Positions 1-63,157 of a stretch of DNA of 64,000 nucleotides are shown one piece after another. Under the pieces are notes generated by a model. It saw only the letters and a list, made by a program, of their open reading frames with translations. It was not told where the DNA came from and ran no database searches. Both the position numbers and the translations under genes were made by a program. Origin of the DNA: a virus; the IMG/VR virus record IMGVR_UViG_3300045988_176431, positions 1 to 64,000 of that record. The stretch is one strand, 5' to 3'. Numbering within the stretch: position 1 is the stretch's first letter; every line of letters begins with the position of its first letter.

Positions 1-470
1 TTACTATCCATAAAGAAGTTCTTCGTTTTTTCAGCAGCATTTTTGACACCATTTACGAATGTTTTACCCATATCCATTGCTTTGTCTCTAACACTAGTTC
101 CAAAGTTTTTAAGGGCATTCCATCCTTTCTTAATACCACCAGTTAAACCATTCCATGCTTTACTAGCAAGATTCTTAATACCAGATTTTTTAACTTTCTC
201 TTTCTTTACAAGTTCACCTGCTTTAATTCTTGCTAATAATTCTTTTTGTGATATATCTTGTTTCTTTAATCTTTCACCATTACCATTAAAACATTCACCT
301 TTAGCGTTATAATAACTACCATCAGTTGCTGCAAAAACAGTTTCCTTACTATCCATAAAGAAGTTCTTAACAGCATTTCCTGCTTTCTTAGCACCATTTA
401 CGAATGTTTTACCCATATCCATTGCTTTGTCTCTAACATTAGTTCCAAAGTTTTTAAGGGCATTCCAGCC
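1..470 (-). repeat. in-frame direct repeat (period 345 nt = 115 codons) in the C-terminal part of the giant protein
   Basis: About 1..125 and 346..470 are near-identical (ttactatccataaagaagttctt ... accatttacgaatgttttacccatatccattgctttgtctctaaca.tagttccaaagtttttaagggcattcca). Both encode WNALKNFGT.VRDKAMDMGKTFVNG...KNFFMDSK. Confidence 0.8.
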
Positions 471-3400
471 AGCTTTTGCTGCACCACCAACAAGTTCTTT
501 ACCTTTATTAATAGCACCTCCAACAAGTTTTTTAGCACCACCAATAAGCCCACCAGAACTAACATCTTTCATCTTTGATGTGTCAATAGCATCTTCATGA
601 ACAAAGCCTAAATCTTTACCATTTTTGCTTTTTACTTGCCATGTACCATCATCATTCTTTGTGTAAGTATTTCCTTTATCATCCTGATATGCTTTATTAC
701 CAACTAAAGCATTTTTTCCTCGATGATATAACCATCCTGCACCTTTTGAAATGGCACCACCTACTTTATCAGAGATACCACCATTTACTCTTGTATTATA
801 AGTATCGAAGTCTTCTTTATCAATTTTATATTTATTAGTTTTTACACCTTCTTTAAAATCTTTATAACTTAGATCTTTACTGATAATCCCAGCCTTTTTC
901 TGTGTTTCATATTGAGCTTTTATTGTTTTATCTTGATCTTTTTCAAAAACTTTTACGAATTTCTTTTGGTTTACTCTCAATTTCTCATAAGATTTACCAC
1001 CATCATTTTTAAAGAAATTATACATAGCACCTAAGATTGTATCTCTTAAGTTTATTGGTTCAAAGAAATCAAGAATAACATCGATTACTGCTCCAATGGT
1101 TGTACCACAACAAAGTCCCCATGCAGCACCAATTAACCTCATAGTCCAGTCAGTATCTTCTTTTGCTACTTTAAATAACTTTGATGCACATGTCGCACCA
1201 TCAATAGCACCACCAAGTGCAAAAACAACTTCACTAAGTCCGGCACTTGCTCCAGCTAAAGCTCCATGTTCTCCAAAAACTTTTGCTAACTTACCACTAA
1301 TCTTAGGAAATTTTTTCTTCAACATTTCGATTATTTGTTTTGGTCCGCATTTACTAAAAAGCTGTTTAATTTTACCTGGTTCTTTTCCAGATTTTTCTGT
1401 AAGTTTTTTAATCAAGTTACTAAAAAATTCTTCGACCATTCCAGCAATTTTTTTAAAGAAACCACCAGAAGCTTTATTATCAGTGGCTTTTTTAGAAAGA
1501 CTCTTTCCTGCATCTTTCATTTTATTAACTATTTTTTTTGCACCTTCGGTTGCTTTACCTTTTACTTCTGTTTTTACAGTATTTTTAAAACTATCCACTT
1601 CGTTTCTTATATTAGTTACGGCTTTTCCTGGCTTTGAATTTTTCACTTTATTTCGTAAAGAATTCTCAGCAGTATCTAATGTATTTCGGACTTTCTGTAC
1701 CTTTTTACCAGCTTTAGATTCAGAAAGAGTTTTCTTTATATTCTTTTTCTTATCACTTTTCCATTTTTTAAATCCTTTTTCATTTTTATTTAATTTAAAA
1801 TCATCATTACCAGGAACAAAAAAATCATCAGCATGTTCTTTAGTCCATCTCTTATTAGATACTCCTTTCATGTTATCCCAATCTTCTTGAGAGATAACTT
1901 TTCGTCCATCTTTAAGAGAATAAGTTTTTGTTTTTTTATCATATACTAAATGATTTTTCTTTGCATCTCTAGTAAATTTTTCATAATCACTAGGTTTTCC
2001 ATGAATTATACGTTTAATTGCTCTACCTGGTGCTTTAATTACTTTCTCAGCACCACGCATTACTTTTTTAGCTTTTTTAGTAGTCTTTGTAAAGCTCTTA
2101 TTATATCTATTATGATAATTTACAATCGTCTTACCTATAAGATTAGTTCGTTCATGAGTACTTCCTGTAGTAGAACCGTCTTCATTTAATCCTAAAGGAT
2201 TTGTTACAATGCCTTTAACATTATCTTTTATTGCTTCAGGTATACTCTTTCCATCTTTTTGAGCACCTATACCATCATTGGTTCCGGATTGATCGATTGT
2301 ATTACCGATAGTCATTCCAAGACCTTTAGCAACACTCTCTAAAATATTTTTCAAAGTTTCCCAAATTCCTGGGAATTTAGCCATAAGTACTAATAAACCA
2401 GCAGTAATAAGACCTTTTTTACTAAAGATATTATCCCAACTTAAGAAATGACTTTTACTCTGTTCATTTCCTTCACCGATTTTATCTTTAATAGCACCAA
2501 ATAACCCTTTATACTCTTTATCTTTTTCTCCCTCTTTCTCAGCTTCTTTTTTCTTTTGCTGAGATTCGAAAGAACCTTCGTTTTTAGCATTTGCTAAATC
2601 AGCAGCATTATCAGCATCAATAATTGCTTCTTTTTTAGCAGAACTATCTTTGATATCATCAACATCTGATGTATCTGCGTTTTCTTTAATTAAATTACCC
2701 TCTTCATCATAGTCTGCATCTGAATTTGCTTTTGTTTTCATAACAGCAATATCATCTGCTTCACTATCATCTTCAGAAGAATTATTTGGACCTCCAACAA
2801 ATGGAATTCCCATTCCGAAGTTTTTCAATCTTCCTTTAATACCGTTAATTCCACCACCAAAACTTGGTGTAGCACCATTAACAGAAGGACCATCGGTTCC
2901 TTTTAATTTACTTATTACACTACTAGCAATACCTTGTACAAATACTTTGATACCATTGCCTTTTTGTGACAGAATTTTACCTTTTGCTTTTGGTGTAAAG
3001 ATTTCTGCGGCACTTGGATCAGATCCACCATCACCAACGAGATATGATTCACCATCATTTACATCTCCACCATTTGCTCTGGCTTTTCCTTTTCTATTAA
3101 AGAAACCTTTTACCTTACCAATTGCATTTTTTGACTTTTCTTTGAAATTGGCAAATGTTTCAGAAGCCTTTCCTTTAATATAATTAATGAAACCACCGGC
3201 TTCTTCAAATTTTTGCTTTAATTCATCAATCTTAGAAATTGCTCCACTTTCTTCATCTTCATTCTCATTATCTTTATCTTCACTATCTTTTTTTTCTTTC
3301 TCATTTTTCTCAGCATCTGAATCACTTTTACCTGATTGATTCATCTTACCTACACCAAAGGCTGGTTTATCACCAGTGAAAAATGATACAAGTCTTTCAA

Positions 3401-32768: not shown

Positions 32769-33917
32769 ATGTTAAATGTAGGTGTAATCGGAATCGGAAA
32801 CTGTGGTAATCAGGTAGCAAAATTGGCAATGAATGAATTGAAATGTGATGTATTAGCAATCAATTCTTCAAAGAATGATTTGAGTACTCTTGGAGAAGGA
32901 GTTCCAGTACTTTGTCTTGGTGATGAAAGAGGAGCTGGAAAGAACAGAACAGAAGCAAAATTATTCCTGAAGAAATCCATTATGGATATGATTCAGAAGG
33001 AAGAGTTTAAAAATTTCATGTCAGAGAAAGATGTGATTTTCATTGTAAGTAGCACAGGTGGTGGAACTGGTTCAGGAATGGCACCAGTATTATCTTCTAT
33101 TATCCGTAAATCATTTAGAGATGAAGAGGGTAAAGAAAAGACTGTCATTTTGATTGGCGTTCTTCCAAAACTCAGTGAAGCATATTCTACTCAGGTAAAT
33201 ACTTTAGAGTATATGGAAGAACTTCATAGTTCCATTGAGAATCCTACATACATGATGTATGATAATGAGAGACTCTCAAAAGAACCTACTCATGTTATGA
33301 TGCAGCGTATTAATCAGAGTATCATTGATGATATTCATGTACTTCAGGGTTATTACAACTTCTCTACGCCATTTAGTTCAATTGATGAGAAAGACATGAA
33401 GATGATTATTCAGACAACTGGAAGAATTTTCATTGCTTCTCTTACCGGATTGAAAGAGAAAGATGTTGATGAAAAATCAATCGAAGATCTTTTAGTTGAG
33501 AAGATTAAGAGAAATACTCATGCTGAGATTGACCGTAATAAGGTTGTAAACCGCACAGGAATTATTACAAATCTCTCAGAGAACTTGAATAATCAGTTTG
33601 ATACACATCTTCAGACAGTTCAGGAATTTGTTGGTTCTCCAATTGAAGAGTTTGAACATGTTGTTGTGAATTCAGAGAGAGCTGCAGAAAATAATGTATT
33701 CTTTATCATGTCTGGTCTCACATCTATGAATGATCGTGTAGAAAAGATTAAAGAAAGAATTGAAGAGATTCAGGAACTTCAGAAGACACAGGCAGAAGAG
33801 AATGCTCTTGATGGTGTTGATATTTCTGAGTTGAATCAGAAGAGAGAATATCGTGAATCTGCTTCCAGTGATGAGAAAGTAAATCTGGAAGGAATCTTTG
33901 CTGACTTTAATGTCTGA
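32769..33917 (+). CDS. tubulin/FtsZ-superfamily GTPase (PhuZ/TubZ-like phage tubulin)
   Basis: GIGNCGNQVA (G box), SSTGGGTGSGMAPV (tubulin signature GGGTGSG), YDNERL (T7-loop-like), short acidic/hydrophobic C-terminal tail. Confidence 0.8.
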   Translation: MLNVGVIGIGNCGNQVAKLAMNELKCDVLAINSSKNDLSTLGEGVPVLCLGDERGAGKNRTEAKLFLKKSIMDMIQKEEFKNFMSEKDVIFIVSSTGGGTGSGMAPVLSSIIRKSFRDEEGKEKTVILIGVLPKLSEAYSTQVNTLEYMEELHSSIENPTYMMYDNERLSKEPTHVMMQRINQSIIDDIHVLQGYYNFSTPFSSIDEKDMKMIIQTTGRIFIASLTGLKEKDVDEKSIEDLLVEKIKRNTHAEIDRNKVVNRTGIITNLSENLNNQFDTHLQTVQEFVGSPIEEFEHVVVNSERAAENNVFFIMSGLTSMNDRVEKIKERIEEIQELQKTQAEENALDGVDISELNQKREYRESASSDEKVNLEGIFADFNV

Positions 33918-36585: not shown

Positions 36586-36611
36586 TATATAGGTATCTGA
36601 AACGATAAAAT

Positions 36612-36652
36612 AAAGTATGAGAGGATTTCTCTCATACTTTATTTTTTTCTTT
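36612..36652 (+). terminator. intrinsic terminator
   Basis: aaagtatgagag gattt ctctcatacttt followed by attttttt. Confidence 0.75.
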
Positions 36653-36694: not shown

Positions 36695-36770
36695 TTATCT
36701 GTACTTATTAATATATGTTACACGAGGAGGTGTACGCTTTATAATGTTATTTTTAAAATAACAAATATTT

Positions 36771-37138
36771 ATGAAAAAAATGAAAGGAGAAAACGATAGA
36801 AAAATGGCAAATAAAGATGATGTTATATTTTATGCAGAAGATGACCTAAAGAAAATACAGTTAAAACCAAATATGTATATTCAAAAATTTGGTGCTTTAG
36901 GAACATTTCATCTTTCAAAAGAATGTATTCAAAACTCAATTGATGAGTTAGAGAATCCAAATACAAATGGAACATGTATTAAGGTTACTTATAATAAAAA
37001 GAGTGACCGTTTAATTGTAGAAGATGATGGTCGTGGTATTCCAGAAGAAGGATATCCGATTGACATTGTGTGTACAGAAATTCAATCTGGTTCTAAATTC
37101 TTTAGAGCTGGTGGTAAAAGTAGTGGTGAGTTCGGTGT
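36771..37138 (+). CDS. type II DNA topoisomerase ATPase/TOPRIM subunit (GyrB / T4 gp39+gp60-like), exon 1
   Basis: KPNMYI, ECIQNSIDE, VEDDGRGIP (GHKL N and G1 boxes). The reading frame is broken in the G2 box by an intron. The start could instead be ATG 36804. Confidence 0.85.
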
Positions 37139-37913
37139 TGTTGTAAATAGCACCCTTATCTAGTAATAGATATTGAAAAACCTATCTAATTGCGGGGAAC
37201 TCTCGTTAGGTCTTAACTACTAACTCAAGATTATTATTTGAGGGCAAAGGGTAATTCCGGAGATATAGTAAAAAGGTTAAGAATAGAGACAATCGACGCA
37301 GCGAAGTTTATTCTAAAAAATAAATAATATGAAATATAAAGAATCAATAATTTTTATAAACGGTGAAAAAAACAAATTATTTAGTTAATACAAAAGGTGA
37401 TGTTATTTCTTTATGTTATAGAGGTATACCTAATAATAGGCATATTATGAAATGAGTAAATTATCTGAATCAGATGTTAAAAATATTTGTAAATTGTTAA
37501 AAAGTAATGTAAATCCAACTGACATTGCAAATAAATTAAATATATCAAGATCAAGTGTTTATAGTATTAAATATAAAAAAACTTGGAGAAGAATATCTGA
37601 TAAGTATTTAAAAGGAAGTGATAAAAAATGATTAGAAATAATATTCGCCGTTTATATTTAAATTATATTATTTAAATATAGAATAAATAAGTTCAACGAC
37701 TATCGAAAGTATAGGTTAAGAGAAATACTTAACTGAATAAACGAGTAGAGTAGACCAGGAGTCTGGGTGCACGAAATTGGTGCTTTACGAAATGGTAGGC
37801 TCCTTATATTTGGTAACAGAATATAAGGATGAAGATATAGTCTAGTATCTCATGGCGACATGAGGAAGTTTATTATAAAACTGGGTTATTTAACGAATAA
37901 TCTGAATACAACG
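37139..37913 (+). ncRNA. group I self-splicing intron (with ORF-bearing insertion)
   Basis: P1: exon GGUGU (37134-37138) pairs with GCACC (37150-37154), with U.G at 37138. Terminal G at 37913. Shares the core (ctatctaattgcggggaactctcgtta, agagacaatcgacgcag, ttcaacgactatcgaaag, gagtagagtagaccag..ctgggtg, gatatagtct, GNRA-capped hairpin 37849-37864) with the two other copies. Splicing restores GEFGVGLTVTNALS. Confidence 0.8.
37452..37631 (+). CDS. intron-encoded 59-aa helix-turn-helix ORF (probable homing-endonuclease remnant)
   Basis: MSKLSESDVKNICKLLKSNVNPTDIANKLNISRSSVYSIKYKKTWRRISDKYLKGSDKK resembles the C-terminal HTH module (LTExDVxxIRxL...IAxxxGVSRSTISxIxxxKTWKHI) of phage HNH-type homing endonucleases. 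No nuclease domain is present. Confidence 0.5.
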   Translation: MSKLSESDVKNICKLLKSNVNPTDIANKLNISRSSVYSIKYKKTWRRISDKYLKGSDKK

Positions 37914-40047
37914 AGGATTGACAGTAACTAATGCCCTCAGTTCATATTTTAAGTTAGCAACATATAGAAATGATTATGTTCATATTATTGAGTTTGAAGA
38001 GGGTAAAAAGATTAATGATGTGAATCGTCCTTTGAAAAAAGGAGAAAAGAAACATGGAACCATTACTGAATTTACTGTAAATGAAAAATATATGGGAAAG
38101 AATTCATCTCTTCCAATTGATACAGTAGTAGATTGGATTGATATGATGACTTATCAAATATCTGCTAAGATTAAAATCACAGTAGATATTTACGATGGTA
38201 TTAATCGAGTAGAAACAAAGAAATTTAAGGCTAGACCATTTGGTAAAATCATTGAGAAATTCGTTCCTGATATTAAGAAAGTTTTCTATGATCCAATTAT
38301 TTTATCTGGTGATTCTAGTATTGTTGAAACAATTACAGATTCAACGATTGATAGTAAAACGGATAAAGTAAAAGTAAAAGATAAGAAAGTGAAAAAAGAT
38401 ATTCATTTGGATGTTGTATTTACACATGATGATACACCAGAAAATGATTATGTATCTTTCTGTAATTTTACAAAGACAGATGAGGGTGGTGTTCATTTAG
38501 ATTCTGTTGAAGAGGTTGTTTGTCGTTTCTTCCAACAGAAAACAAAATCTTTTATGACAGATAAAGAAAAAGAGAAATGGGACATTACTTGGGCAGATAT
38601 TAAGTATGGACTTAAGATGGTTGTAAATCTTTCAACAAGTGCACAAGTTCAGTTTATGGGTAATGCAAAGAATAAAATTCAGAACGCTGAATTAAAACCG
38701 ATTCTGAAAGAAATCATTAATACTGAATTAACGAAGTATTATGAAAAGAATGAAGGAAAGATTCAAAGTATATGTAAACTGATTAAGTTGAATGCAAGAG
38801 CACGTGTAGAATCTCAGAAAGTTCGTACAGCAACGAAGATTCAAAAATTAGACCGTTTTGATGAACTTTCAATTCCTAACTATGTAAGTTGTAATAACAG
38901 AGGAAAGAAGTATAAAGAATTATTCCTTGTAGAGGGTGAACGTTCTGCAACAGGTTCTGTTCGTAATGGTAGAAATCACGATACACAGGCAATCTTTGGA
39001 TTCCGAGGTGTGACAAAGAATCCATATAAATGTAGTGTAAGCGAAGTTCTAAGTAACAACGAGTGGAAGAACTTTATAAAGGTATTAAGAACTGGATTCG
39101 GAAAAGATTTTGATATTAATAAATTATATTATGACAAAATCATTTTGTTAACAGATGCCGATATTGATGGATTTTATATTTCATCTGGTATTTGTGCATT
39201 TATTGCACTTCTTATGCCAGAGATTATTACAGAGGGTCATTTATACAAAGTATATCCACCATTATATCAGATTAAGGATGGAAAGAAATTTAAGTTCTTA
39301 AATTCAAAATCTGATTTAACAGAAGAATTCATGAAGAAAGTTACAAAGAAATATAAGATTTATCTTCAAGGAGATAAGAATCCTTTATCAAAGGATGAAC
39401 TTTTTGAGTTCTTATATGACACGCTTGAGTATTATAATGATTTGAAAGACCTTGGTAAATATTTCTCAGTGGATAAATATTTCATTGAGAGAGTTGCTAA
39501 CTTCTTATTAATTAATGATATTCACAAAGCAACAAATGTAGATAAGTATTTAGAAAGTAATAAATTCGTTACTTCTTTTATGAACTATTTACAGAAAGAA
39601 TATCCAGAAGTAAATCTGGAAAAGAAAAATCGTTTACGTGGTGTAGTAGAAGGACAGATTGCATCAATTAAGATAAACGATAGAAATCTTAAGAAGTTCT
39701 CTGATTTTGAGAATATCTTTAAAGATTATGGTTATGAAATCGTGATCGAAAATAAGGATACAAAGGAAAAGAGAACAATTACAGTCGGTAGATTTATGGA
39801 GGAAACTTATCCATTACGTCCAGATATTTATAGCCGATTTAAAGGACTTGGTGAAACTGATGCTGAAGATATGGGTAAAACTACGCTAGATCCAGAGAAT
39901 CGAATCTTAGTTCAACTTACGATGGATGATGCAAAAGAAGCATTGAAAATCTTTAATAAGTTAAATGGTAATAAAAAGAAGGATTCTGAACTTCGAAAAG
40001 AAATGATGCGTCAGTATAAGATTGATAAAGAAAATCTGGATAACTAA
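37914..40047 (+). CDS. type II DNA topoisomerase ATPase/TOPRIM subunit, exon 2
   Basis: Continues (V)GLTVTNALS, then the transducer region, TOPRIM LFLVEGERSATGS and LLTDADIDGFYI, and C-terminal GLGETDAEDM. Exons sum to 2502 nt (833 aa). Confidence 0.85.
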
Positions 40048-40064
40048 AAGGAGGGTGAACAGAA

Positions 40065-42455
40065 ATGGGTAAGACAAAAAGAAATGTTTATTTAAATCCA
40101 CGACGTGGTGAAAAACAAAGTTTTGATGTTGCTCTTGCTTGTGAAGAGTGGTCAAAAGTATTTGGTGCAAATAAAAATATTTTTCGAACGACACCATCTA
40201 TGATTGATTCATTAAAACCAGTACAGTTAAGAATTTTGTATTGCCTTTATATGAGTGATAATCATGGAATGAAGAATCGTAAAGCAGCAGCTGTTACTGG
40301 TGAAGTAATGGGTAAATATCACCCACATGGAGATGCATCTATTTATGAAAGTATTGTAAAGATGTGTCAACCTTGGAAAAATCATGTTACTCTATTAGAT
40401 GGACATGGTAATTTTGGATCCATTGCAGGTGATTCTGCAGCCGCTATGCGTTATACTGAAGTGAAGATGAGTAAGTTTGCGATGGATTGTTTCTTTAGTG
40501 ATTTCGAAAGAACGAATATTCCAACACGTGAAACTTATACAGGAGATTCAACAGAACCAATTTATCTCCCATCTAAGTATCCAGTAATTTTATTTAATCC
40601 ATCATTTTCTGGAATTGGATTTGGACTTGCATCTAATATTCCACCTTTTAATCCAAAAGAAGTAATGGATGCAACAATTACGTTGATTCGAGATAAGAAA
40701 GCAAAAATTCGTTTGATTCCAGATTCACCAACTGGATGTGATATTATTGATACTGGCTATTTTGACCAGATTAATAAGACTGGTAAAGGAAAAATTATGA
40801 TGCAGGCTACTTATGATATTGATTATCAGGCAAATATTGTGACCTTTACATCAGTTCCTTTACAGGTTGGGACAAAAAATGTAATCGCATCTATTGTTAA
40901 GATGAAAAAAGAAGGAAAACTGGATGAGATTGTTGATGTTACAGATAGAACAGCAAATTCAAAAGTAGACTTCTCTTTAATCTTAAAGAAAGATGTGAAT
41001 CCAGATAAGTTTGTTGAAAAGTTATTTAAGAAGAAATGTGGACTTCGTGAAGGATTTTCTTGTGAAATTCAAGTAATTGATGATTTTGCACCAAGACTTC
41101 TTGGAGTAAAGAAGATTCTTCTTGAATGGATTGATTATCGAAGAGATTGTATTCATTCTATTTATAATAACTATTTGATGAAGTATCAAACAGATTATCA
41201 TATGAATCTTATCCTTATGAAGATTTTCAATAAAGATAATATTGAAAAGACAATTAAGATTTCAAGAAACTCAAAAACAAAAGCTGAGATGAAAGAGAAT
41301 CTTATAAAAGCATACGGAATCACAACACTTCAGGCTGAAGCAATCTCTAATATGAGAACAAGTGATTTCGTAAAGGATAAGTATAAAGAGTACGAAGAAA
41401 AAGATAAAGACCTTACTGAAAAAATTAAGAAAGTAGAAAAAGTTCTTGATTCTGATCATGAGGTAGATAAAATCATTATCAAACAATTAGAAGATGGAAT
41501 TCGTAAGTATGGCGGTCCTAGATTATCCCGTGTCATTAAAGAGGGAGAAGAAGAACTGATTCCAAATACGAATTATTTGATTGGAATTAGTAAGGATGGT
41601 TATATTAAGAAAATTTCAGCAGATGAATATGTATCAATTGGTTCTGTTGGAAAAACATCTTCAGTATCAGCAATCAAAATCAATAACCGAGATAATCTTC
41701 TAGTTTTTGATAGTCTTGGTAATATATCAAGGGTTATGGTTTCTATTATTCCTGATATGAAATATGATGAAAATGGAATTGAACTTGCTAGATTCCTTAC
41801 TACAAGTGGTGAAATTGTTACTATTATGAAAGAAAGTGAAGTCAAGGAATGTGTAAATTCTAACATCATGTTAGTAACACAAAATGGATTCGGTAAAAAA
41901 GTATCTTTATCTGAATTTAAGAACTTAACAGACCAAAAAGTTTCTATCACATTGAATGAGGGTGATAAGTTAGTTTCAGCAATTCCATCAATTGAGAGTG
42001 ATGACATTATTGTATACACAAACTTTGGTGATGGTATCAGACTTTCAACTGACGAATTTAAATTATATGGTAAAACTGCAAAAGGCTTGAATTTAATTTC
42101 TTTGAAACAGAATGAAAAAGTCATTGGAATGGATGTTATTGATAATACAAAAGAGAAAGATAAATTAGTATATATCACAACATCTGGTAGATTGAAAATG
42201 ACAAAAACGGAATATTTCCCTGTTATGAAGAGAAAAGATGAAGCATTAGCACTTTTATCATTAGAGAGTGGGGAACAACTTTTGAATGTATTCTCAGTTT
42301 CTGGAAAAGAAAGAATTGAATGTTATAGAAAGAAATCAAAACCAGTTACTGTTGAATTAAAGGATGTTCCAATTAAGACACGTATTTCAAAAGCTGAAAA
42401 GATTATAAAGACACCAAAAGGTGATGAAGTATTGGCTTGTAAGTTAATACGATAA
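40065..42455 (+). CDS. type II DNA topoisomerase DNA-cleavage subunit (GyrA/ParC / T4 gp52-like)
   Basis: YHPHGDASIYESIVKMCQPW and AAMRYTEVKM (catalytic Tyr motif). Confidence 0.85.
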   Translation: MGKTKRNVYLNPRRGEKQSFDVALACEEWSKVFGANKNIFRTTPSMIDSLKPVQLRILYCLYMSDNHGMKNRKAAAVTGEVMGKYHPHGDASIYESIVKMCQPWKNHVTLLDGHGNFGSIAGDSAAAMRYTEVKMSKFAMDCFFSDFERTNIPTRETYTGDSTEPIYLPSKYPVILFNPSFSGIGFGLASNIPPFNPKEVMDATITLIRDKKAKIRLIPDSPTGCDIIDTGYFDQINKTGKGKIMMQATYDIDYQANIVTFTSVPLQVGTKNVIASIVKMKKEGKLDEIVDVTDRTANSKVDFSLILKKDVNPDKFVEKLFKKKCGLREGFSCEIQVIDDFAPRLLGVKKILLEWIDYRRDCIHSIYNNYLMKYQTDYHMNLILMKIFNKDNIEKTIKISRNSKTKAEMKENLIKAYGITTLQAEAISNMRTSDFVKDKYKEYEEKDKDLTEKIKKVEKVLDSDHEVDKIIIKQLEDGIRKYGGPRLSRVIKEGEEELIPNTNYLIGISKDGYIKKISADEYVSIGSVGKTSSVSAIKINNRDNLLVFDSLGNISRVMVSIIPDMKYDENGIELARFLTTSGEIVTIMKESEVKECVNSNIMLVTQNGFGKKVSLSEFKNLTDQKVSITLNEGDKLVSAIPSIESDDIIVYTNFGDGIRLSTDEFKLYGKTAKGLNLISLKQNEKVIGMDVIDNTKEKDKLVYITTSGRLKMTKTEYFPVMKRKDEALALLSLESGEQLLNVFSVSGKERIECYRKKSKPVTVELKDVPIKTRISKAEKIIKTPKGDEVLACKLIR

Positions 42456-51467: not shown

Positions 51468-52757
51468 TTAGAAATTATTTAATGTATTAAATAAATCTAA
51501 GTCTATACTTCCCATGTTTTCATCAGAACCATCAATCATATAATCTGCTGTGTTGTCATAAAGCTCACTATCAATGAGATTTTTCTTATATAACATCATA
51601 GATTCTTTTTGGGATTGAGCAATTGCTTTTCTCAGTTCTTCTGCATACATGTCTTTATTTGCTTCTTTCATCATTGTATCATGAATATCTCTTGCTGCTT
51701 CTGTTGAAATATTCTTTGTATAAGCGTCATCAGGTCTATGCAAACCATCATTATTTGCATTTTCAATAACTTCACCTTTATACAAACCAAAAGTCTCTAA
51801 GTTATCACCATGATAGTATACATATAATCCTATTAAGTATGACATAATAGAGTCATCGTGAAAACCTGCTCCTGCTTCGATTTTTCCACTTGGTTTTTTC
51901 ACAAGTCTTGATAAGTCATCCACAATATTTTGACAAATAAATTTATCTTTAAATTCACTAACATGTCTTGACAATATTGCGAACATTGTTTCACGTGAAT
52001 TTCCTTGTGTATAAACACCATAAAATTTCTTTTTCTGAGCATTATTCTTGAGCATACTTTGTACAGTTTCGTTCGAATGCATTTTTTCTTCTTGTAAATC
52101 TCTTGATTTATCAAAATACAGATTTCCTGCAATTGGACTATACATCAAATGATCAATGATACCATCACCTACGTTATTACGCTCAATACAAATAATAGCA
52201 TTTGGAATATATTGCTCAACTAATTCACGAATTACTAATTCATAAAGGGTTTCACCAATATAAGAACATTTAAATTCAGCAACAGGTTCTACCTTATAAG
52301 GATCAATAATTGTCATTGCATTATTATCTCCAAGAGTACCAGTAGAACAGTCAACACCTACAATATATGGAATTGATTTATCAAATTCTTCGTATATATC
52401 TAATTCATAATATTCTTTCAAATAAACTTTCTTAATCGGTCTCTTACATACATCAATGATGTAATCAATATCTTCACGAGCATATGGAGAATTTCCAGAA
52501 CCTTTCAATCGTTGTAATAAAATCTCACGACGAACAGTTAATGGATCACCAATCTCATTAGCGATATCTCTAAACCATTTTTCATCTTTTCCGATTTGAT
52601 GATAATCATATTCAATATATAAAATATGATTGGAATCATCTGCTTTAATCCAATCAATACATTTTTTATCAGACCAATCATACATTTTTTCAGTCCATGG
52701 TCTTGTTTTTGCTAACAATCTTTGTGCTGCCATTCCTTCAGCAGTATCTAAATCACC
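51468..52757 (-). CDS. terL: terminase large subunit (T4 gp17-like), exon 2 (nuclease half)
   Basis: VGVDCSTGTLGDNNAMTIID and GFHDDSIMSYLIGLY match T4 gp17 LDCSEGRGQDYHALHIID and GYHDDLVMSLVIFGW. The listed TTG 'start' at 52760 lies inside the intron. Confidence 0.8.
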   Translation of the reverse strand, partial: GDLDTAEGMAAQRLLAKTRPWTEKMYDWSDKKCIDWIKADDSNHILYIEYDYHQIGKDEKWFRDIANEIGDPLTVRREILLQRLKGSGNSPYAREDIDYIIDVCKRPIKKVYLKEYYELDIYEEFDKSIPYIVGVDCSTGTLGDNNAMTIIDPYKVEPVAEFKCSYIGETLYELVIRELVEQYIPNAIICIERNNVGDGIIDHLMYSPIAGNLYFDKSRDLQEEKMHSNETVQSMLKNNAQKKKFYGVYTQGNSRETMFAILSRHVSEFKDKFICQNIVDDLSRLVKKPSGKIEAGAGFHDDSIMSYLIGLYVYYHGDNLETFGLYKGEVIENANNDGLHRPDDAYTKNISTEAARDIHDTMMKEANKDMYAEELRKAIAQSQKESMMLYKKNLIDSELYDNTADYMIDGSDENMGSIDLDLFNTLNNF

Positions 52758-53140
52758 CAATTTATTTTATTCATATAAGTTCGTTATACTTATATCTGTT
52801 TTTATACAGCTATACTTCTCAGTATAGATTAGACTATATCTTCATCCTTATATTCTATTACCAAACATAAAGAGCCTACCATTTCGTAAAGCACCAATTT
52901 CGTGCACCCAGACTTCTGGTCTACTCTACTCAGTTATTCATATATAGATTTCTCTATATACTATCCTTTCGATAGTCGTTGAACATTCCTAATTGTTATT
53001 AGGCTTTGCTGCGGATTGTCTCTATCCTTAACGTTTTTACTATATTTTCAATATTAGTAGGTAAGACTTAACGAGAGTTCCCCGCAATTAGATAGGTTTT
53101 CCTTAAAAGTTTATGCAACTTTCTCACGCCCAGTGATTTT
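52758..53140 (-). ncRNA. group I self-splicing intron
   Basis: P1: exon ACGCCU (rc of 53141-53146) pairs with GGGCGU (rc of 53126-53131), with U.G at the junction and a 9-nt loop. Terminal G (rc of 52758). The core is nearly identical to the topoisomerase intron (e.g. gagtagagtagaccagaagtctgggtgcacgaaattggtgctttacgaaatggtaggct). Confidence 0.8.
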
Positions 53141-53977
53141 AGGCGTGCATGTAAATATACGACCATATAATGTATGATTTTTCTTTGATTTTTCTGCGGC
53201 TGTATTAAATGTAGAAACCGAGTTCTGAACAATAACATCAATATGAGATGTAAATTCAGGCTCGTCAAAATGTAATAATGGTGAAGTTAAACCACGGGCT
53301 AAGTTTAATGCCTGTGCATAACTTGTTGCTTTTGCTTTAACGGTAATACTATTTCCTGTCACAGGATGTTGCATACGGGTTGCATTTTTAACCATCTTTG
53401 TAATTTTACCGTCTTCATCCATATAAGATTCAAATCGTAAATATTCAGGTAATATCTCAATTTGTGCAGCGACACGACGTAAATTTTCTTTTGCATTCTC
53501 ACCATCTTTATTTACAAAAATAAAGTTAGAGTTTGAAGTACCAAAAGAATATGCCCATGTTTGTATACACAATGCTGAAACAGTTTTACCTTGCTGACGA
53601 CAAAGACATAACCATGAATCATACCCATGTAATAAACACCAAGCTTGTGCAATATTACCACGATTTGCACGATATGGAACACCATTTTTCATACCAGGCT
53701 CTGGAATTCTTGCTACCTCACGTAGATAATACCAAGGATTCTTTGTACATTCTACCATGATACGTGAAATTTGGTCTTTTGACAAACTTGTTCGTTCTGT
53801 CTTTTCATCTACTTGAAAAGCATCTACATTTGTCAAACTAATATCACATATTTCTAGCATGAAATAAAAGTTTTTTATTCCTACTTTTTTTAAATCAGTA
53901 GCAACTTTTAAAAAACTTTTATTGGCAGTTCCAGTATCATAATACTTTCCATTTATTTTCCTTATTCTATGTGCCAA
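53141..53977 (-). CDS. terL: terminase large subunit, exon 1 (ATPase half)
   Basis: TTG 53977 after AAGGAGG (ORF open to ATG 54049). CRQQGKT (Walker A; T4 SRQLGKT), LLHFDEPEF (Walker B), IFTCTP (motif III; T4 ITTTP). The listed tail KITGREKVA* is intron read-through. Confidence 0.8.
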
Positions 53978-54067
53978 AAAGATTTCCTCCTTTCTTACAT
54001 GAATTAATATACTGTCATGAATGAAAGAAAAAATATCCATTAAAAACATGATTATAAAGAACGTGAG

Positions 54068-57836: not shown

Positions 57837-57924
57837 TGATATATACAGAAATACGATTTTCAATTCTAAATAACTGAGAAAACAAAGATATAACGTAATT
57901 GAAATATGAAAGTAGGTGAAAAAT

Positions 57925-60900
57925 ATGTACTTTGTAAACGATTTACCTTATTTAAAAGCAGTTCGTAAAAAAGCTTTTTTGCCAAAGGGTCAACCGATAT
58001 CACAAGGTAATTTAATTTTTCTATTTTCACCATCGATTGAAAAATCATTTGAAATGATCAATGATGAGACAACTGTCCCAAATGGTGGAAAATATTTTTG
58101 GTATTTTTATAACTTATTATATCGAGGAACCATTTATGGAAAACGATATCTTTATCGTGATATGAAAGAAAGACTTGCGATATATAAGCGAGTACCAAAA
58201 GAAACAAATATACGTTCTTATGCAACTAAACCAATTATTAGTGGTACAGAAAAAAGAAACACATATTATGAATTAGCTAGATATTATGAAATATTTAATC
58301 AATATTCAAGTAAATTAAATGCAGTAAAATTGGTTGATTGTTTTTGGAAATACTTTACTCCTATCTTTAAAGATCAATATGGATATTTAGATCATAAATA
58401 TGTCTTAATTAATGCAAATAACTTTAAAGATTTTAAAGGGGATAAATTAAGAGACCAGTTAAATAATCCTTTGTTTTTGATTTATTATACTTTGTGGAAA
58501 CAATTTGATTTGATTGCTGAGTTGGATATTGATTTCATTATTTATGCAAATGGAAAAATCATGAGATTTAACCCATCTAAATGTGATGAAAAATCTTATC
58601 GAATATATCTTAGAGAATTAAAAAAGATATATTCAGTTGCTACAGTTCCAATTGAGACAATTGCTGAAGAAGAAATTAATACTGAGGAAGAAGAAAAAGA
58701 AGAGGAACCGAGAGTAAAGTTTAAATCAGAAAAAATGTCTGTTACTAAAAAAACAGCATTACCAATTGTAGATAAAATTACGGCGGTAGCAACAAAATTG
58801 TCAGCATCTTCAAAAAAGAAGATTGAACAAAAGGTAATTCATAAAGTTTCTTCTGTATCATCTACTATGAATGTCGATAAGATAAAAGATGATGAAAAGA
58901 AAAAAGAGGTTGTAAAAGAAATTCAAAAGAAAGTAGAAGATGAAATTAATACAGATGAAGATGTGATTAAAGAAGTATATAATACAATGCAAAAAGAATT
59001 TGTACCAAAATCAACTTCACGTTCTACTGCTAGAGATAATCTTTTACGAGAAGAACAGAAGAAGTTGAATATCAAAGGTTCAACTTTAAAATCTATTGAA
59101 AAACAAAAAGATGTTGATATTGAAACAACAGATATTACTCAGAATGTAAAAAGCACAAATGAGAATACAAAAATAATCAAGTTTAATAACTTTAATAAAA
59201 CTTATAACGATAAGCTTTTAAATAAAGATATTATGGATTGCTTTACTCAATTGAATAATAAGTCAATTAAGATGTTTATCCGAAATGTCGATATAGAAGA
59301 TACTTCAGATGAATTGAATTATAAAGAAACTTGGACGGTTAAGTTAGAGGATGAAAACAGAAATCGTCATACAATAAAAGTAGATATTCCTAAATTCTTA
59401 GAGTATAAATTTTTATGGCTCGGTGGTAATAGAAAGAATATAAAGAATCAGATGTTCTTTTTACCATTTGTAAAGATTGATAAAGACCGTGTTCTTATTG
59501 TATCTAATTATAATAAGTTTACAATTCAACGAGTGGATACAAAGTCTTTAAGGGGTCTTTCTCGAATTGAAACATTTATTCAGAAATCAGATTCTTTTAA
59601 AGATTACTTTATTTCAGGTAATACTTTCTTTGAAAATAAAGATTTTATTACAGCAATTGAATATGATGAATTTGGAAAGAGTTTTCGTAAATTCCATAAA
59701 TCTCAAACAACGATTTACTTCAGTCAGGTAGAAGCAAAGCATGAGATGGAAAAGAAAATGATAAAGATTAAATCAAATGAAATGTTCATTGGTTTTGAAA
59801 AGGGTGAACCACTTATCCTTAATATTAAAACACAGAAAGATAAAAAGAATCGTGGTATTGTCGATATCATTTTAGATACGATGGATGAAACTCAATTAAA
59901 AGAGTATAAATCTATTAAAACGCCAAAACGGTTGATGCATACTCAGATTACAACAATGAAACAGGATTGTCCACTTATTATCATGCTTTGTATTTGGGAA
60001 GGACTTAGTACGGTATTAAAGAAAGCAAAGATTAAATATCGTTTAGGTGCAAGCATTCGTGATATGAAAGTAAACGAAGATTATATTCGTTTCAAGAATT
60101 GCTATTTGATTTATGAAGATGATATTGAATCTGAATTATTAATCAATGGATTGAAGTTATTAGATACTGCTTCACATGATATTGGTGAATATGAGACACA
60201 AGAAGTTTATCTTCCATATGTTGAAAGGAAATATGGTAGAATAAACGCTATTAATACATTAAATAATGCTTATGAATTTATGCTAGGTTCAATTGAAATA
60301 TCTTTATTAAAAGATATGAATCTTCCAACGGATATTGTATCTCTTTGTATTCATGCAAATGAAGTACTCTGTGATAATCAATACGACAATGAGTTAGTTC
60401 AAACACATTCTCGTATTCGTTGTAATGAAATTATTCCTGCAATTCTTTATGATAAGATTGCAAAAGCTTATACACCATTTAAGAACTCAAATGGTAAAAA
60501 GAAATTATCAATTCCACAAGATTGTGTCATTAAAGAAATTTTAAAGCAAAAAACAGTAGAAGATTATGATTCATTAAATCCTTTATTGGAACTTGAAACG
60601 AATCATGGTGTATCAACAAAAGGATTTCGTGGAATTAATTTGGAGCAGTCTTATAGTGTTCCAAAACGTTGTTATGATGATAGTATGATTGGTGTTATAG
60701 GACCATCTTCATCTCCAGATGGAAATGTAGGTGTAAATCGTTCTCTTACGATGGAACCAAATATTAAAACAGCAAGGGGATATGTAGAAGTAAAGAAAGA
60801 TAATTTGAATGAGGTAAAAGATGTTAATCTTTTCTCTCCAGCAGAACTTTTAATTCCTCTTGGTGTAACACGAGATGATCCAGTTCGAACTGGACATAGT

Positions 60901-61872
60901 GTAAAACAGTCTCGTCATACAATTCCTGTTGTAAAATCTTCACCTGTCCTTATTTCAAATGGTTCAGATGAAATGTGTAAATATTACTTATCTTCTGATT
61001 TTGTTGTAAATGCAAAAATGGATGGTAAAGTAGTTGAAAATGACCCTTCAACAAAAATTATGGTTGTTGAATATAAGGATGGAACTCATCAAGCAATTGA
61101 TTTAGGAAAGAAACTTGCAAAAAATGGTGGTGGAGGTTTTGAATTATCAAATCAATTAATCACAAACTTAACCGTTGGTTCCAGATTTAAAAAGAATGAT
61201 ACACTTGCATGGCATAAAAATTTCTTTAAAAACGATAAATACCAAGGAACACGTTTATGTGTTGGTACATTAGCGAAAGTAGCAATAACTTCTTCTTATA
61301 ATACTTATGAAGATGGTACTTTTGTGACACATGGATTTTCAGAAAAAGCAACAACTGAAATGTGTTTTAAAAAACCTGTCGTAATTGGAAGACACTCAAA
61401 TGTATCTCAGATGGTATCAGTTGGTCAATCAATTAATACTGGTGACCCATTGATTCAGTTTGATGACTCTTTTGAAGAAGCCAATATTAACGTTCTTCTT
61501 AATTCACTTGGTGATAATGAAGAATTAAAGGATGCCGTTATTTCGAATAATAGAAATATTGTAAAATCGAAATATTCTGGTGTAATAGAAGAGATTAAAA
61601 TGTATTCTACAGCAGATTTAGAAGATTTGTCTCCGAGTTTACAAAAAATCTTTAAAAGATATTATGATAAGATAAATAATAGAAAGAAAGTATTGAAAAA
61701 ATACAATGAAAAAGATGGAATTGTGTATTGTGGAATGATGATTAATGAACCTACTGGTAAAGTAGAACCAAATCGTTATGGAACAATACGTGGTGAGAAA
61801 GTAAATGATGGTGTGTTAATTGAGTTTTATATTAAACATCAGGAACCACTAGAAGTTGGTTCCAAAATCGCT
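57925..61872 (+). CDS. multisubunit-RNA-polymerase beta-like subunit, exon 1
   Basis: ATG after AGGTGA. GFRGINLEQSY..RCYDDSMIGVIGPSSSPDGNVGVNRSL aligns with beta RDVH.SHYGR.CPIETPEG.NIGLI.SL. DDPVRTGHSVKQSRHTIPV aligns with DDANRALMGSNMQRQAVP. Ends EVGSKIA, aligning with GDKMA. About 700 aa at the N-terminus have no recognisable similarity. Confidence 0.75.
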
Positions 61873-62224
61873 TAAAGTTAGGTGATTTAAAACTTACCTA
61901 ATTGCGGGAAACTCTCGTTAAGTTCTAGTTACTAACTTATGATAGTAATATACATAAGGGCAAGGGGTAACTCCTAAGGTATAGTAAAAAAACTAGAAAT
62001 AGAGACAATCGACGCAGGGAAGTATCTCTTATGAGATATGGCTTCAACGACTATCGAAAGGATAATATATAGAGAAATCTATATATGAATAACTGAGTAG
62101 AGTAGACCAGTTAATCTGGGTGTACGTTATTGGTACTTTACGAAACGGTAAGTGTTATAAATATGGTAATAGTATTTATAATAAAGATATAGTCTATTCT
62201 ATATAGTGATATATAGTATTAAAG
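61873..62224 (+). ncRNA. group I self-splicing intron (ORF-less)
   Basis: P1: exon UCGCU (61868-61872) pairs with GGUGA (61881-61885), with U.G at 61872. Begins with in-frame TAA and ends in G at 62224. Shares the core with the two other copies. GNRA-capped hairpin ctatata gtga tatatag at 62199-62216. Confidence 0.75.
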
Positions 62225-63157
62225 AATTTTACAGCTTTGAAGAATGTAATTGGTGAAGTTGTTGAAAAAGGTTATGAACCTTATTCTGAATTTAGACCAG
62301 ATGAAGAAATTTCAACATTTATTGCATCAAACTCAATTCTATCACGTATGACACCATCTATTCTTTTAAATGGATTTGGTAATAAATGTATTATCGAATT
62401 AAAACGTGCTTTACAAGATATTTGGGATTCAGTATCAGACTTTGCAGTAAGACGTAATACTATGGAATCATTAATTTATCGATTCTTTACGGCATTTGAT
62501 AAGTCAGGTACTAATACAAAACATTATAAAGAAATCTTTTCTTCTATGTCAGATAATCAATTCCAGACTTATTTTAGAGATTTCTTTGCAGATGAAGATA
62601 AGTATTTAATTCTTACAATTGTAGATTACGAAAGAACGATAAAAATGGAAGATATTAGAAGAGCAGCAAAAGTTCTTAATATACCTTTATATGAATATAT
62701 ATTCATACCACACTTAAATCATAATAAAGAACATCCTATTGTGAGTCCTGCAAAAGTTCCTGTTATTTATATTAATATCAAGAGAACACAGCAGACAGTA
62801 GCAAAGAAAAATGGTTTAAGTACAAATGTAGACGAACGTAGTGCTCTTACTGGTCAGGTGGTACGTCATGATAAAAATGGTAGAGAATCTGATCTTGAAA
62901 ATATCATGCTAACATCACTTGGACTTGATAATTGCTTAAAAGAATTAAATGGACCAAGAGCAGATGATTTAGTGATGAAACAACAGATGAATCAATCAAT
63001 TAATTCAAAAGGATATGTTAAATTATCTGATTTGGATGATAAGATTGAAAATAAAACAACATTGAATACCGTAGATACTTATTTCTTAGGAATGGGTCTT
63101 AAGACAGACTTAGTTACAAAAGGATTAAAAACAATATCTACGTTACGAAAAGAATAA
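62225..63157 (+). CDS. multisubunit-RNA-polymerase beta-like subunit, exon 2
   Basis: Splicing gives GSKIA|NFTALKNVIGEVV with the same spacing as GDKMAGRHGNKGVISKI. Then ASNSILSRMTPSILLNG (LNPLGVPSRMNIGQILE) and LTGQVVRHDKNGRESDLENIML...RADD (GGQRFGEMEVWAL...SDD). Confidence 0.75.
   Translation, partial: NFTALKNVIGEVVEKGYEPYSEFRPDEEISTFIASNSILSRMTPSILLNGFGNKCIIELKRALQDIWDSVSDFAVRRNTMESLIYRFFTAFDKSGTNTKHYKEIFSSMSDNQFQTYFRDFFADEDKYLILTIVDYERTIKMEDIRRAAKVLNIPLYEYIFIPHLNHNKEHPIVSPAKVPVIYINIKRTQQTVAKKNGLSTNVDERSALTGQVVRHDKNGRESDLENIMLTSLGLDNCLKELNGPRADDLVMKQQMNQSINSKGYVKLSDLDDKIENKTTLNTVDTYFLGMGLKTDLVTKGLKTISTLRKE

Follow-up and report, generated by a model that had tools for sequence, protein, structure and literature searches.

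The td intron of bacteriophage T4, a member of subgroup IA2, interrupts the thymidylate synthase gene and carries the endonuclease I-TevI (GIY-YIG) in its P6 loop. Textbook examples of phage group I introns lie in genes for polymerases, ribonucleotide reductase and terminase (PMC3984707), and the jumbo phage PhiPA3 has an intron with the endonuclease gp210 (PMC11620839). The Jug jumbo phages carry about 18 group I introns per genome, averaging about 206 nucleotides (nt), in essential genes (terL, nrdD, polymerases); HNH endonucleases are common in them, and of 76 predicted introns 37 have metatranscriptome reads that support splicing (PMC12880540, in the parts of that report considered here, which mention no topoisomerase intron). 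Here we describe a 775-nt element at positions 37139..37913 of a 64,000-nt stretch of viral DNA (IMG/VR record IMGVR_UViG_3300045988_176431, positions 1 to 64,000; the whole stretch is termed the window below). We consider it very probable, from its sequence and predicted fold, that this element belongs to the phage td/Twort (subgroup IA) type of group I introns and lies in the pre-mRNA for a GyrB/ParE-like type II topoisomerase subunit.

The interrupted topoisomerase gene

The element is flanked by open reading frames (ORFs) of 130 amino acids (aa; 36771..37163) and 709 aa (37918..40047). When 37138 is joined to 37914, they form one in-frame ORF of 2502 nt, free of frameshifts and stops, that encodes 833 aa and reads ...SGEFGVGLTVTNALS... 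over the junction (KSSGEFGV/GLTVTNALS, with the slash at the join). Without the join, the reading terminates ...GVVVNSTLI at the stop codon TAG 37161-37163. HATPase_c, DNA_gyraseB, Toprim and DNA_gyraseB_C all pass the Pfam cut-offs in the joined protein, and only after joining are the features of a GyrB/ParE subunit (GHKL domain with GxxGxG lid, transducer, TOPRIM and C-terminal domain) found in a single chain.

A search of 5.8 billion proteins yielded 94 full-length (790-848 aa), uninterrupted homologues with 38-68% identity. Residues 116-132 of the joined protein align to all 94 with zero gaps, and the homologue consensus across the junction is SSGEFGVG(L/I)TVVNALS. The N-terminal 242 aa also align continuously, across the junction, to solved ParE/GyrB ATPase domains; the alignment to S. 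aureus ParE (4URN, E=2e-19) is unbroken there, with the aligned segment KFFRAGGKSSGE-FGVGLTVTNALS (SGE-FGVGLTVTNALS). The intronless relative L136, with 68% protein identity, has AGTGGTGAATTCGGCGT and CGGTCTTACAGTT contiguous across the insertion site. These gap-free alignments to homologues and structures place the break within a Val codon in the GxxGxG box of the GHKL ATP lid, exon 1 ending after the second base of the Val codon in G-E-F-G-V. Alternative U/G pairs close to both intron ends were rejected, as they either broke the frame or added a residue found in no homologue.

A sequence-only reading of the window had proposed that the two ORFs are halves of one gene, that joining 37138 to 37914 restores a GxxGxG / VxNALS box within 2502 nt, and that an unspliced message would stop early, after VVNSTLI. 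The ORF list, the Pfam domains of the joined protein, the homologue and 4URN alignments and the position of the TAG bear out each of these proposals. The alignment to GyrB-type homologues that it suggested as a check left no gap at the junction in any of the 94.

Selection on the gene was assessed by comparison with L016, a 98-99% identical relative (IMG/VR contig IMGVR_UViG_3300045988_176405, 249,343 bp). The exons differ at 26 of 2502 positions, with 24 synonymous and 2 non-synonymous codon differences, which indicates that purifying selection acts on the two exons as a single frame. The order of a GyrB-like gene followed by a GyrA/ParC-like gene was the same in all relatives retrieved. The true start codon of exon 1 may be ATG 36804 (Met12) instead of 36771; the gene call of homologue P0002 starts at the position equivalent to about residue 12. 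Upstream of exon 1 we observed a strong terminator-like hairpin (18-bp stem plus T run; 36607..36645, + strand), 3' of the preceding gene, and a promoter-like GTTACA-17-TATAAT at 36717-36745. Between the exons nothing comparable to this pair was found, except the P9 hairpin discussed below.

The same site appears to be occupied in many related phages, since in at least seven further homologues (P0004, P0030, P0045, P0056, P0057, P0059 and P0107; 44-65% identity) the homology stops precisely in front of the G of G(L/I)TV. In one of these, P0030 (L137, ENA ERZ18533814 NODE_2846, 1..2325), exon 2 begins at this site and no exon 1 was found within the 2.3 kb upstream. Two ORFs lie there instead, of 251 and 258 aa, neither matching Pfam; the arrangement could represent a much larger insertion or a rearrangement. 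Five metagenome contigs with a gyrB homologue (L001, L004, L138, L141 and L142) stop inside or at the intron, as expected if a repeated intron family breaks short-read assemblies. L141 and L142 were found via P0001, the public 709-aa gene call for exon 2, and all five contigs are uninformative on the presence of an insert in the P6 loop (L6).

Predicted splice sites and ribozyme core

The predicted 5' splice site is marked by the P1 helix. Exon GGTGT at 37134-37138 can pair with the guide GCACC at 37150-37154, so that U37138.G37150, at the last exon base, is the sole U.G wobble in the canonical orientation; within the same helix, intron UGUU (37139-42) pairs with AAUA (37146-49). P1 is kept at the same codon position in two orthologous gyrB introns, from L002 (exon GGCGU with GCGUC) and L003 (exon GGCGU with GCGCU), where a synonymous exon change of U to C is compensated by a guide change of A to G, replacing U-A by C-G. 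The intron-final base, 37913, is G (omega-G), and the L002 and L003 introns likewise terminate in G. The in-frame stop TAG of the unspliced reading falls within P2. The pairing, the wobble and the terminal G had all been called by the sequence-only reading, and all are conserved in the orthologues, P1 with a compensatory change.

To find related cores, IMG/VR was scanned with two motifs of the core as patterns, which gave 15 loci and more than 118 loci. We built an alignment, A2, of 30 sequences: the gyrB copy of the window with most of its L6 loop removed, 3 same-site gyrB orthologues, the 2 other copies in the window and 24 paralogues. The model tested against A2 was a hand-written P3-P9 structure including the P3/P7 pseudoknot. 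Standard pairs occupy 93.9% of the alignment cells, versus 33.7-45.0% when the 3' partners are slid by 1-3 columns. Compensatory changes occur in 56 of 88 pairs (340 cells), and none of 500 shuffles reached any of the observed measures. Covariation is heavy in P3, P5a (7/7 pairs), P6a, P7.1a, P7.2, P8 and P9, while P4 and most of P7 are invariant; P7, presumed to be the guanosine-binding helix, is 97.8% paired with 2 covarying pairs. RNAalifold independently recovers P3, P5, P5a-c and P6a. In the window copy all helices are fully Watson-Crick or G.U, and its core retains every base that is invariant in the family. The folding that the sequence-only reading had proposed as a check thus gave a group I core, and the segment that it likened to td-type P3-P4 corresponds to P3-J3/4-P4-J4/5-P5 ... 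P5'-J5/4-P4', blocks that are present in the actual td intron.

Homology points the same way. A second intron of the window, in the large terminase gene terL, is its sole group I match above the Rfam gathering threshold. By BLASTN the gyrB element is 91% identical to it over 37691-37844 (142/156, E=1e-57), 96% over 37177-37223 and 89% over 37263-37306, the two halves of the match being separated by the insert in the P6 loop. The 23-mer CTATCTAATTGCGGGGAACTCTC occurs three times in the window versus 0.00 expected. As to subgroup, P7.1/P7.2 helices with covariation support lie between P7 and P3', P7 is td-like, and P9/P9.2 parallel those of td. The predicted P7.1/P7.2 helices, which are the hallmark of subgroup IA, fit that subgroup (IA2, td/Twort type), a distinction within what Rfam treats as a single group I family.

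Several observations weigh against a group I intron. The structure was partly derived from the window sequence and A2 mixes paralogues with orthologues, so that the comparison with slid partners may look better than it should. Even so, the difference in paired cells is large and RNAalifold recovers helices independently, which makes chance unlikely. There is no convincing P10 between exon-2 AGGAUU and the bases 5' of GCACC, and a simple scan flagged P9 and the U-rich run after it as terminator-like. Finally, the Rfam search suggested by the sequence-only reading succeeded only in part. A permissive RF00028 scan of 37000-38100 matched the 3' half alone (37652-37865, E=2.5e-5), and its 29.4 bits lie below the gathering score of 50. 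RF00028 also gives no hit on the ORF-less orthologue L016 at E<=0.01, none on L002 or L003 at E<=0.001 and none on L001. The family departs from the Rfam consensus in two features: P5 has a large extension and, in 29 of the 30 A2 copies, two bases (GA) bulge from the 3' strand of P4 (AAUCGACGCAGC).

The RF00028 gathering threshold is an operational and not a defining criterion for group I introns, and the low score reflects a blind spot of the model, not a missing fold. The sole A2 copy without the GA bulge, the terL intron, is also the only one that RF00028 scores above threshold; this copy lacks P5c-d as well, and reaches 86.2 bits despite 89-96% core identity to the gyrB intron. The GA bulge and the large P5a-d extension are probably why L016, L002 and L003 are missed. 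It follows that intron counts based on RF00028 in jumbo-phage metagenomes are likely to be underestimates.

The catalysis and its timing we infer, following the established group I pathway. The RNA would fold into P1-P9 with the P3/P7 pseudoknot, and free guanosine bound in P7 would attack the bond after U37138, marked by the P1 wobble. The omega-G would then take the same P7 site, and the 3'-OH of exon 1 would attack after G37913. The ligated exons would form the 2502-nt ORF with its ATP-lid motif, GEFGVG-LTVTNALS, restored; unspliced RNA would give only a 130-aa dead-end peptide, ending in P2.

Endonuclease remains, alternative readings and further copies

The alignment of L016 to the window breaks exactly at the borders of 355 nt that are inserted in the P6 loop. 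Identity between L016 and the window is 99.1% over 36752-37317 and 98.4% over 37673-40875; L016 lacks 37318-37672, and has a gyrB intron of 414 nt with no ORF. The orthologous intron of L002 is 1186 nt long and has, in the same loop, an intact 239-aa ORF with Pfam HNH_3 and HTH_7 matches. The window insertion retains a 59-aa ORF that is 51% identical over 51 aa (E=9e-16) to the C-terminal helix-turn-helix (HTH) repeat of the L002 enzyme (residues 187-237) and 37-38% identical to an internal repeat of that enzyme. With the L002 HNH protein as query, no HNH-like segment was found in any frame of 37300-37700; tblastn matches to putative N-terminal remnants upstream of the ORF are weak (E=0.03 and E=0.06, the search space being tiny). 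The 59-aa ORF is best read as a C-terminal remnant, and not a member, of the HNH (HNH_3) homing endonucleases. The window intron was probably once mobile by means of a P6-loop HNH homing endonuclease and is probably no longer autonomously mobile. At this one site, then, three stages of an intron life cycle are seen, with the endonuclease intact (L002), decayed (the window) and lost (L016, and L003, where the intron is 445 nt). Between the window and L016, the intron differs in its 5' part at 1 of 167 positions and in its 3' part at 11 of 223, and stems P6a and P7.1a show compensatory changes. The 3' part is more diverged than either the 5' part or the exons, which suggests recombination with another intron copy.

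The remnant bears on whether the intron acts alone. Splicing might require a maturase or chaperone of the phage or host, possibly the 59-aa HTH protein itself, and might also serve to time topoisomerase expression. The ORF remains open with its own ATG though the endonuclease has lost its catalytic part, and the core could be weakened by the P4 GA bulge and by the apparent absence of P10. In organelles, group I splicing with the help of proteins is established, which supplies a precedent. L016, however, lacks the entire L6 insert and its ORF while its gene is still under selection, so the HTH protein is dispensable in cis. The phage IA2 introns tested so far (td, nrdB and Twort) self-splice in vitro (for review, see PMC3984707). 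We regard a need for such a helper as unlikely.

Much less probable is a truly split gene, whose two ORFs would be translated separately and assembled as two polypeptides around an inactive RNA relic. The topoisomerase subunit of T4 is split into gp39 and gp60, so a precedent exists among phages, and public gene calls give exon 2 as a separate protein (P0001). The only start near exon 2 is an in-frame TTG (37918). It is preceded by GAGGA, but this ends 1 nt upstream of the TTG and so lies too near to serve as a ribosome-binding site, and the exon-2 ORF starts of relatives are not conserved (MNIC, MNES, MQVIC, MTTFR or a downstream Met). The break, moreover, lies inside a codon for the ATP-lid loop of one GHKL fold, so that neither piece is a folding unit, and the RNA between them has all the helices and family-invariant bases of the ribozyme core, with an exact, in-frame junction.

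That the intron is dead and the topoisomerase a decaying pseudogene is hardly credible: the endonuclease has clearly decayed and the Rfam score is below threshold, but the differences from L016 show purifying selection over 2502 nt without frameshifts or stops, the intron itself has few changes in its 5' part and compensatory ones in P6a and P7.1a, and the partner GyrA-like gene is intact. Two further candidates were rejected. Translational bypass like that of T4 gene 60 does not accord with a 775-nt gap that has stops in all frames and a ribozyme fold, and an intein would need an open frame through the insert, which is absent.

Besides the gyrB and terL introns, the window holds a third, paralogous intron, which lacks P2, in the gene for the beta subunit of a multisubunit RNA polymerase. 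Its 3' boundary is drawn from the reading frame only, and Rfam misses it. For the terL intron, the P1 pairing of ACGCCU with GGGCGU and the reading frame suggest boundaries that give ...IFTCTP/GDLDTAEG.... A profile hidden Markov model built from the 30 copies found no further copies in the window. Weak mir-71 and CsrC matches, far below thresholds, were treated as chance.

The L016 contig carries at least 19 copies, with a median pairwise core identity of 81%, and every copy examined there has its own P1. Some of them lie in arrays, L007 (390-2413, 5 cores) and L013 (6872-9238, 6 cores), in which the gaps from P9 to the next P3 are 49-158 nt; some cores are only 49-65 nt apart. Most of the array cores allow a strong P1 that has a U.G at its end. 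Such nearly back-to-back cores imply micro-exons, from a few to about 40 nt long. An exon matching the PHROG annotation 'polymerase' precedes the L007 array. For L013, exon assignment by P1, omega-G and open frame alone gives 266,315 solutions and is underdetermined without an uninterrupted homologue.

For the core of the gyrB intron, identity is 83-84% to paralogues in other genes of its genome, versus 74% to same-site gyrB orthologues in other phages, which suggests intragenomic spread or gene conversion. We put forward only tentatively, and with more doubt than conviction, that it belongs to a family of ribozymes whose copies are actively spreading inside one jumbo-phage genome. If it were, ectopic transposition (by reverse splicing, or by endonucleases acting in trans) would have to be frequent, or the copies would have to evolve in concert. 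To our knowledge, neither process is well documented for phage group I introns.

The window, with 28.9% G+C, comes from a phage lineage of about 250 kb. A PhuZ-like tubulin (32769..33917, + strand; PHROG 4733, 9.4e-14) and the beta subunit of a multisubunit RNA polymerase (57916..63157, + strand) identify it as a jumbo phage. Among deposited phages there was no near-identity DNA match to the window, and no tRNA genes were found in its 64 kb. Coordinates of all features are collected in Table 1.

Table 1. Predicted features of the gyrB intron, its host gene and the related introns of the window
Feature	Position	Strand	Details and basis
Exon 1, GyrB/ParE-like topoisomerase II subunit, GHKL N-terminus	36771..37138	+	ORF list; Pfam HATPase_c at residues 47-133 of joined protein
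Predicted group I intron (775 nt) with the architecture of td/Twort (subgroup IA)	37139..37913	+	Sequence, homology, fold, td comparison
Exon 2, remaining GHKL domain, transducer (DNA_gyraseB), Toprim, GyrB C-terminal domain	37914..40047	+	Joined ORF, Pfam, homologue alignment
Intronless insertion site			AGTGGTGAATTCGGCGTCGGTCTTACAGTT
P1, 9 bp	37134..37154	+	Exon GGUGU + intron UGUU (37134-37142) with AAUA + guide GCACC (37146-37154)
P2 hairpin	37157..37172	+	UAUCUA-GUAA-UAGAUA, GNRA loop; sequence, helix map; identical P2 in L002
P3 5' strand	37181..37186	+	CCUAUC with GGUAGG 37794-37799 (pseudoknot with P7); 100% of cells paired, 4/6 pairs compensatory; RNAalifold agrees
P4-P5 domain	37191..37300	+	Helix map, covariation
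P4	37191-96/37293-300	+	UGCGGG with UC(GA)CGCA, 2-nt GA bulge at 37295-37296; invariant, 99.4% paired
P5	37201-04/37286-89	+	Helix map
P5a	37211-17/37276-82	+	Helix map
P5b	37218-22/37266-70	+	Helix map
P5c	37224-28/37238-42	+	Helix map
P5d	37249-51/37256-58	+	Helix map
P6	37301-02/37691-92	+	GC with GU; helix map, covariation
P6a, stem closing L6 insertion (5' strand region 37301..37315)	37306-15/37679-88	+	GUUUAUUCUA with UAGAAUAAAU
P6-loop insertion, 355 nt, with remains of homing-endonuclease gene	37318..37672	+	BLASTN of L016 against window
Putative frameshifted HNH N-terminal remnants	37338..37410	+	KESIIFINGEKNK / KTNYLVNTKGDVIS in different frames; tblastn with L002 protein
HTH-only ORF, 59 aa, own ATG	37452..37631	+	Pfam, weak HTH_7 match only
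P7 5' strand	37698..37703	+	GACUAU (R element GUUCAACGACUAUCG) with AUAGUC 37837-37842 (S element GAAGAUAUAGUC)
P7.1/P7.2 peripheral domain between P7 and P3'	37704..37789	+	Closing helix 37704-08/37784-89
P7.1/P7.2 hairpins	37715-20/37728-33; 37755-58/37763-66; 37769-72/37780-83	+	4 covarying pairs in each
P8 hairpin	37801..37829	+	UCCUUAUAU with AUAUAAGGA; 7/9 pairs covary
P9 hairpin	37849..37864	+	CUCAUG-GCGA-CAUGAG, GNRA loop; near-identical to T4 td P9 (GCAUGGUGACAUGC)
P9.2-like hairpin and 3' tail	37884..37913	+	GGUUAU-UUAACGA-AUAAUC, then CUGAAUACAACG to omega-G 37913; td comparison
Partner GyrA/ParC-like subunit gene, directly downstream, intact	40065..42455	+	Pfam DNA_topoisoIV 5.4e-104
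terL exon ORFs, large terminase	53111..54049, 51468..52760	-	
terL group I intron	52758..53140 (about)	-	RF00028 86.2 bits, E=1.5e-20, full model, hit 52810-53150
RNA polymerase beta exon ORFs	57916..61875, 62237..63157	+	
Third paralogous intron, without P2, in RNA polymerase beta gene	61873..62239 (about)	+	P1 AUCGCU with GGUGAU

Comparison with known introns and split genes

For annotation, these results mean that the large topoisomerase subunit is one 833-aa protein, not two fragments of 130 and 709 aa; the truncated form is present in public gene calls (P0001 and about 25 related clusters). The GHKL ATP-lid codons emerge as a recurrent homing site. Homing endonucleases as a rule target codons for invariant catalytic residues, and the recurrent ATP-lid site fits that rule. 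Our understanding of how group I introns work is unchanged. Phage group I introns, including a gyrB intron in a cultured phage, are already known, and the ATP-lid site and the lineage-specific features of the core are the only new details. We found no report of an intron at this site in the phage-intron literature compared.

The cultured example is the AR9-like Bacillus phage vB_BspM_Internexus (MW749003.1), which, like the phage of the window, has a group I intron in a jumbo-phage gyrB (L140 1730-2115; Rfam 64.7 bits, E=8.9e-15). Its record lists two coding sequences annotated 'putative DNA gyrase subunit B' and no intron feature in the region retrieved. There the insertion lies about 500 codons in, after a first coding sequence of 508 aa, and not in the ATP lid. 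The gyrB genes of PALS_2 and PB50 are split too, and the proteins of these phages are only 26-29% identical to ours, the range also observed for the deposited-phage matches of the window protein as a whole. The halves in Staphylococcus phage PALS_2 are separated by a 287-aa ORF, and its split region gave no Rfam hit.

Among 50,697 deposited phage records, the nearest intron is that of polA in Staphylococcus phage K/A5W (I-KsaIII, HNH), which is 71-72% identical over positions 35-203 of the gyrB intron (P3-P6); by blastn only the 5' half is similar. It likewise has an HNH endonuclease but resides in a DNA polymerase gene and in another phage family. The window phage shares with the Jug phages the presence of introns in terL and polymerase genes, although it belongs to a different lineage. 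The T4 gene 60 (gp39-gp60) split is also a mobile-element interruption of a phage type II topoisomerase gene. In T4, however, ribosomes hop over 50 nt, whereas the gap in the window is 775 nt and folds as a ribozyme.

The closest parallel in architecture is td. As reference we used a 49-mer of the T4 td intron that matched T4-like phages at 100%, at a locus reading thymidylate synthase / homing endonuclease / thymidylate synthase. A global MAFFT alignment was poor outside conserved blocks, with the 5' half misaligned, and local blocks were used instead. Both introns split a phage protein gene inside a conserved active-site motif, have an early in-frame stop and carry an ORF in L6. They share the P3-J3/4-P4-J4/5-P5 block (CUAUC-UAA-...CGGGGAAC-CUCUC ... 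AGACAAUC), the elements R = AACGACUAUC and S = GAGAUAUAGUC, the P9 sequence CAUGG(U/C)GACAUG, UUAACGA as the loop of P9.2 and CUGAAyAyAAyG as the 3' tail; the td counterpart of P9.2 and tail is GGUAAG-AUUAACGAC-CUUAUC CUGAACAUAAUG. From J8/7 to the 3' end the two are 70% identical over 81 nt (E=2e-6 in a pairwise comparison). Unlike td, the gyrB intron lies in a topoisomerase gene and its endonuclease is of the HNH type and degenerate. Its P5 is much larger (P5a-d), its P7.1/P7.2 is branched, and its P4 bears the GA bulge.

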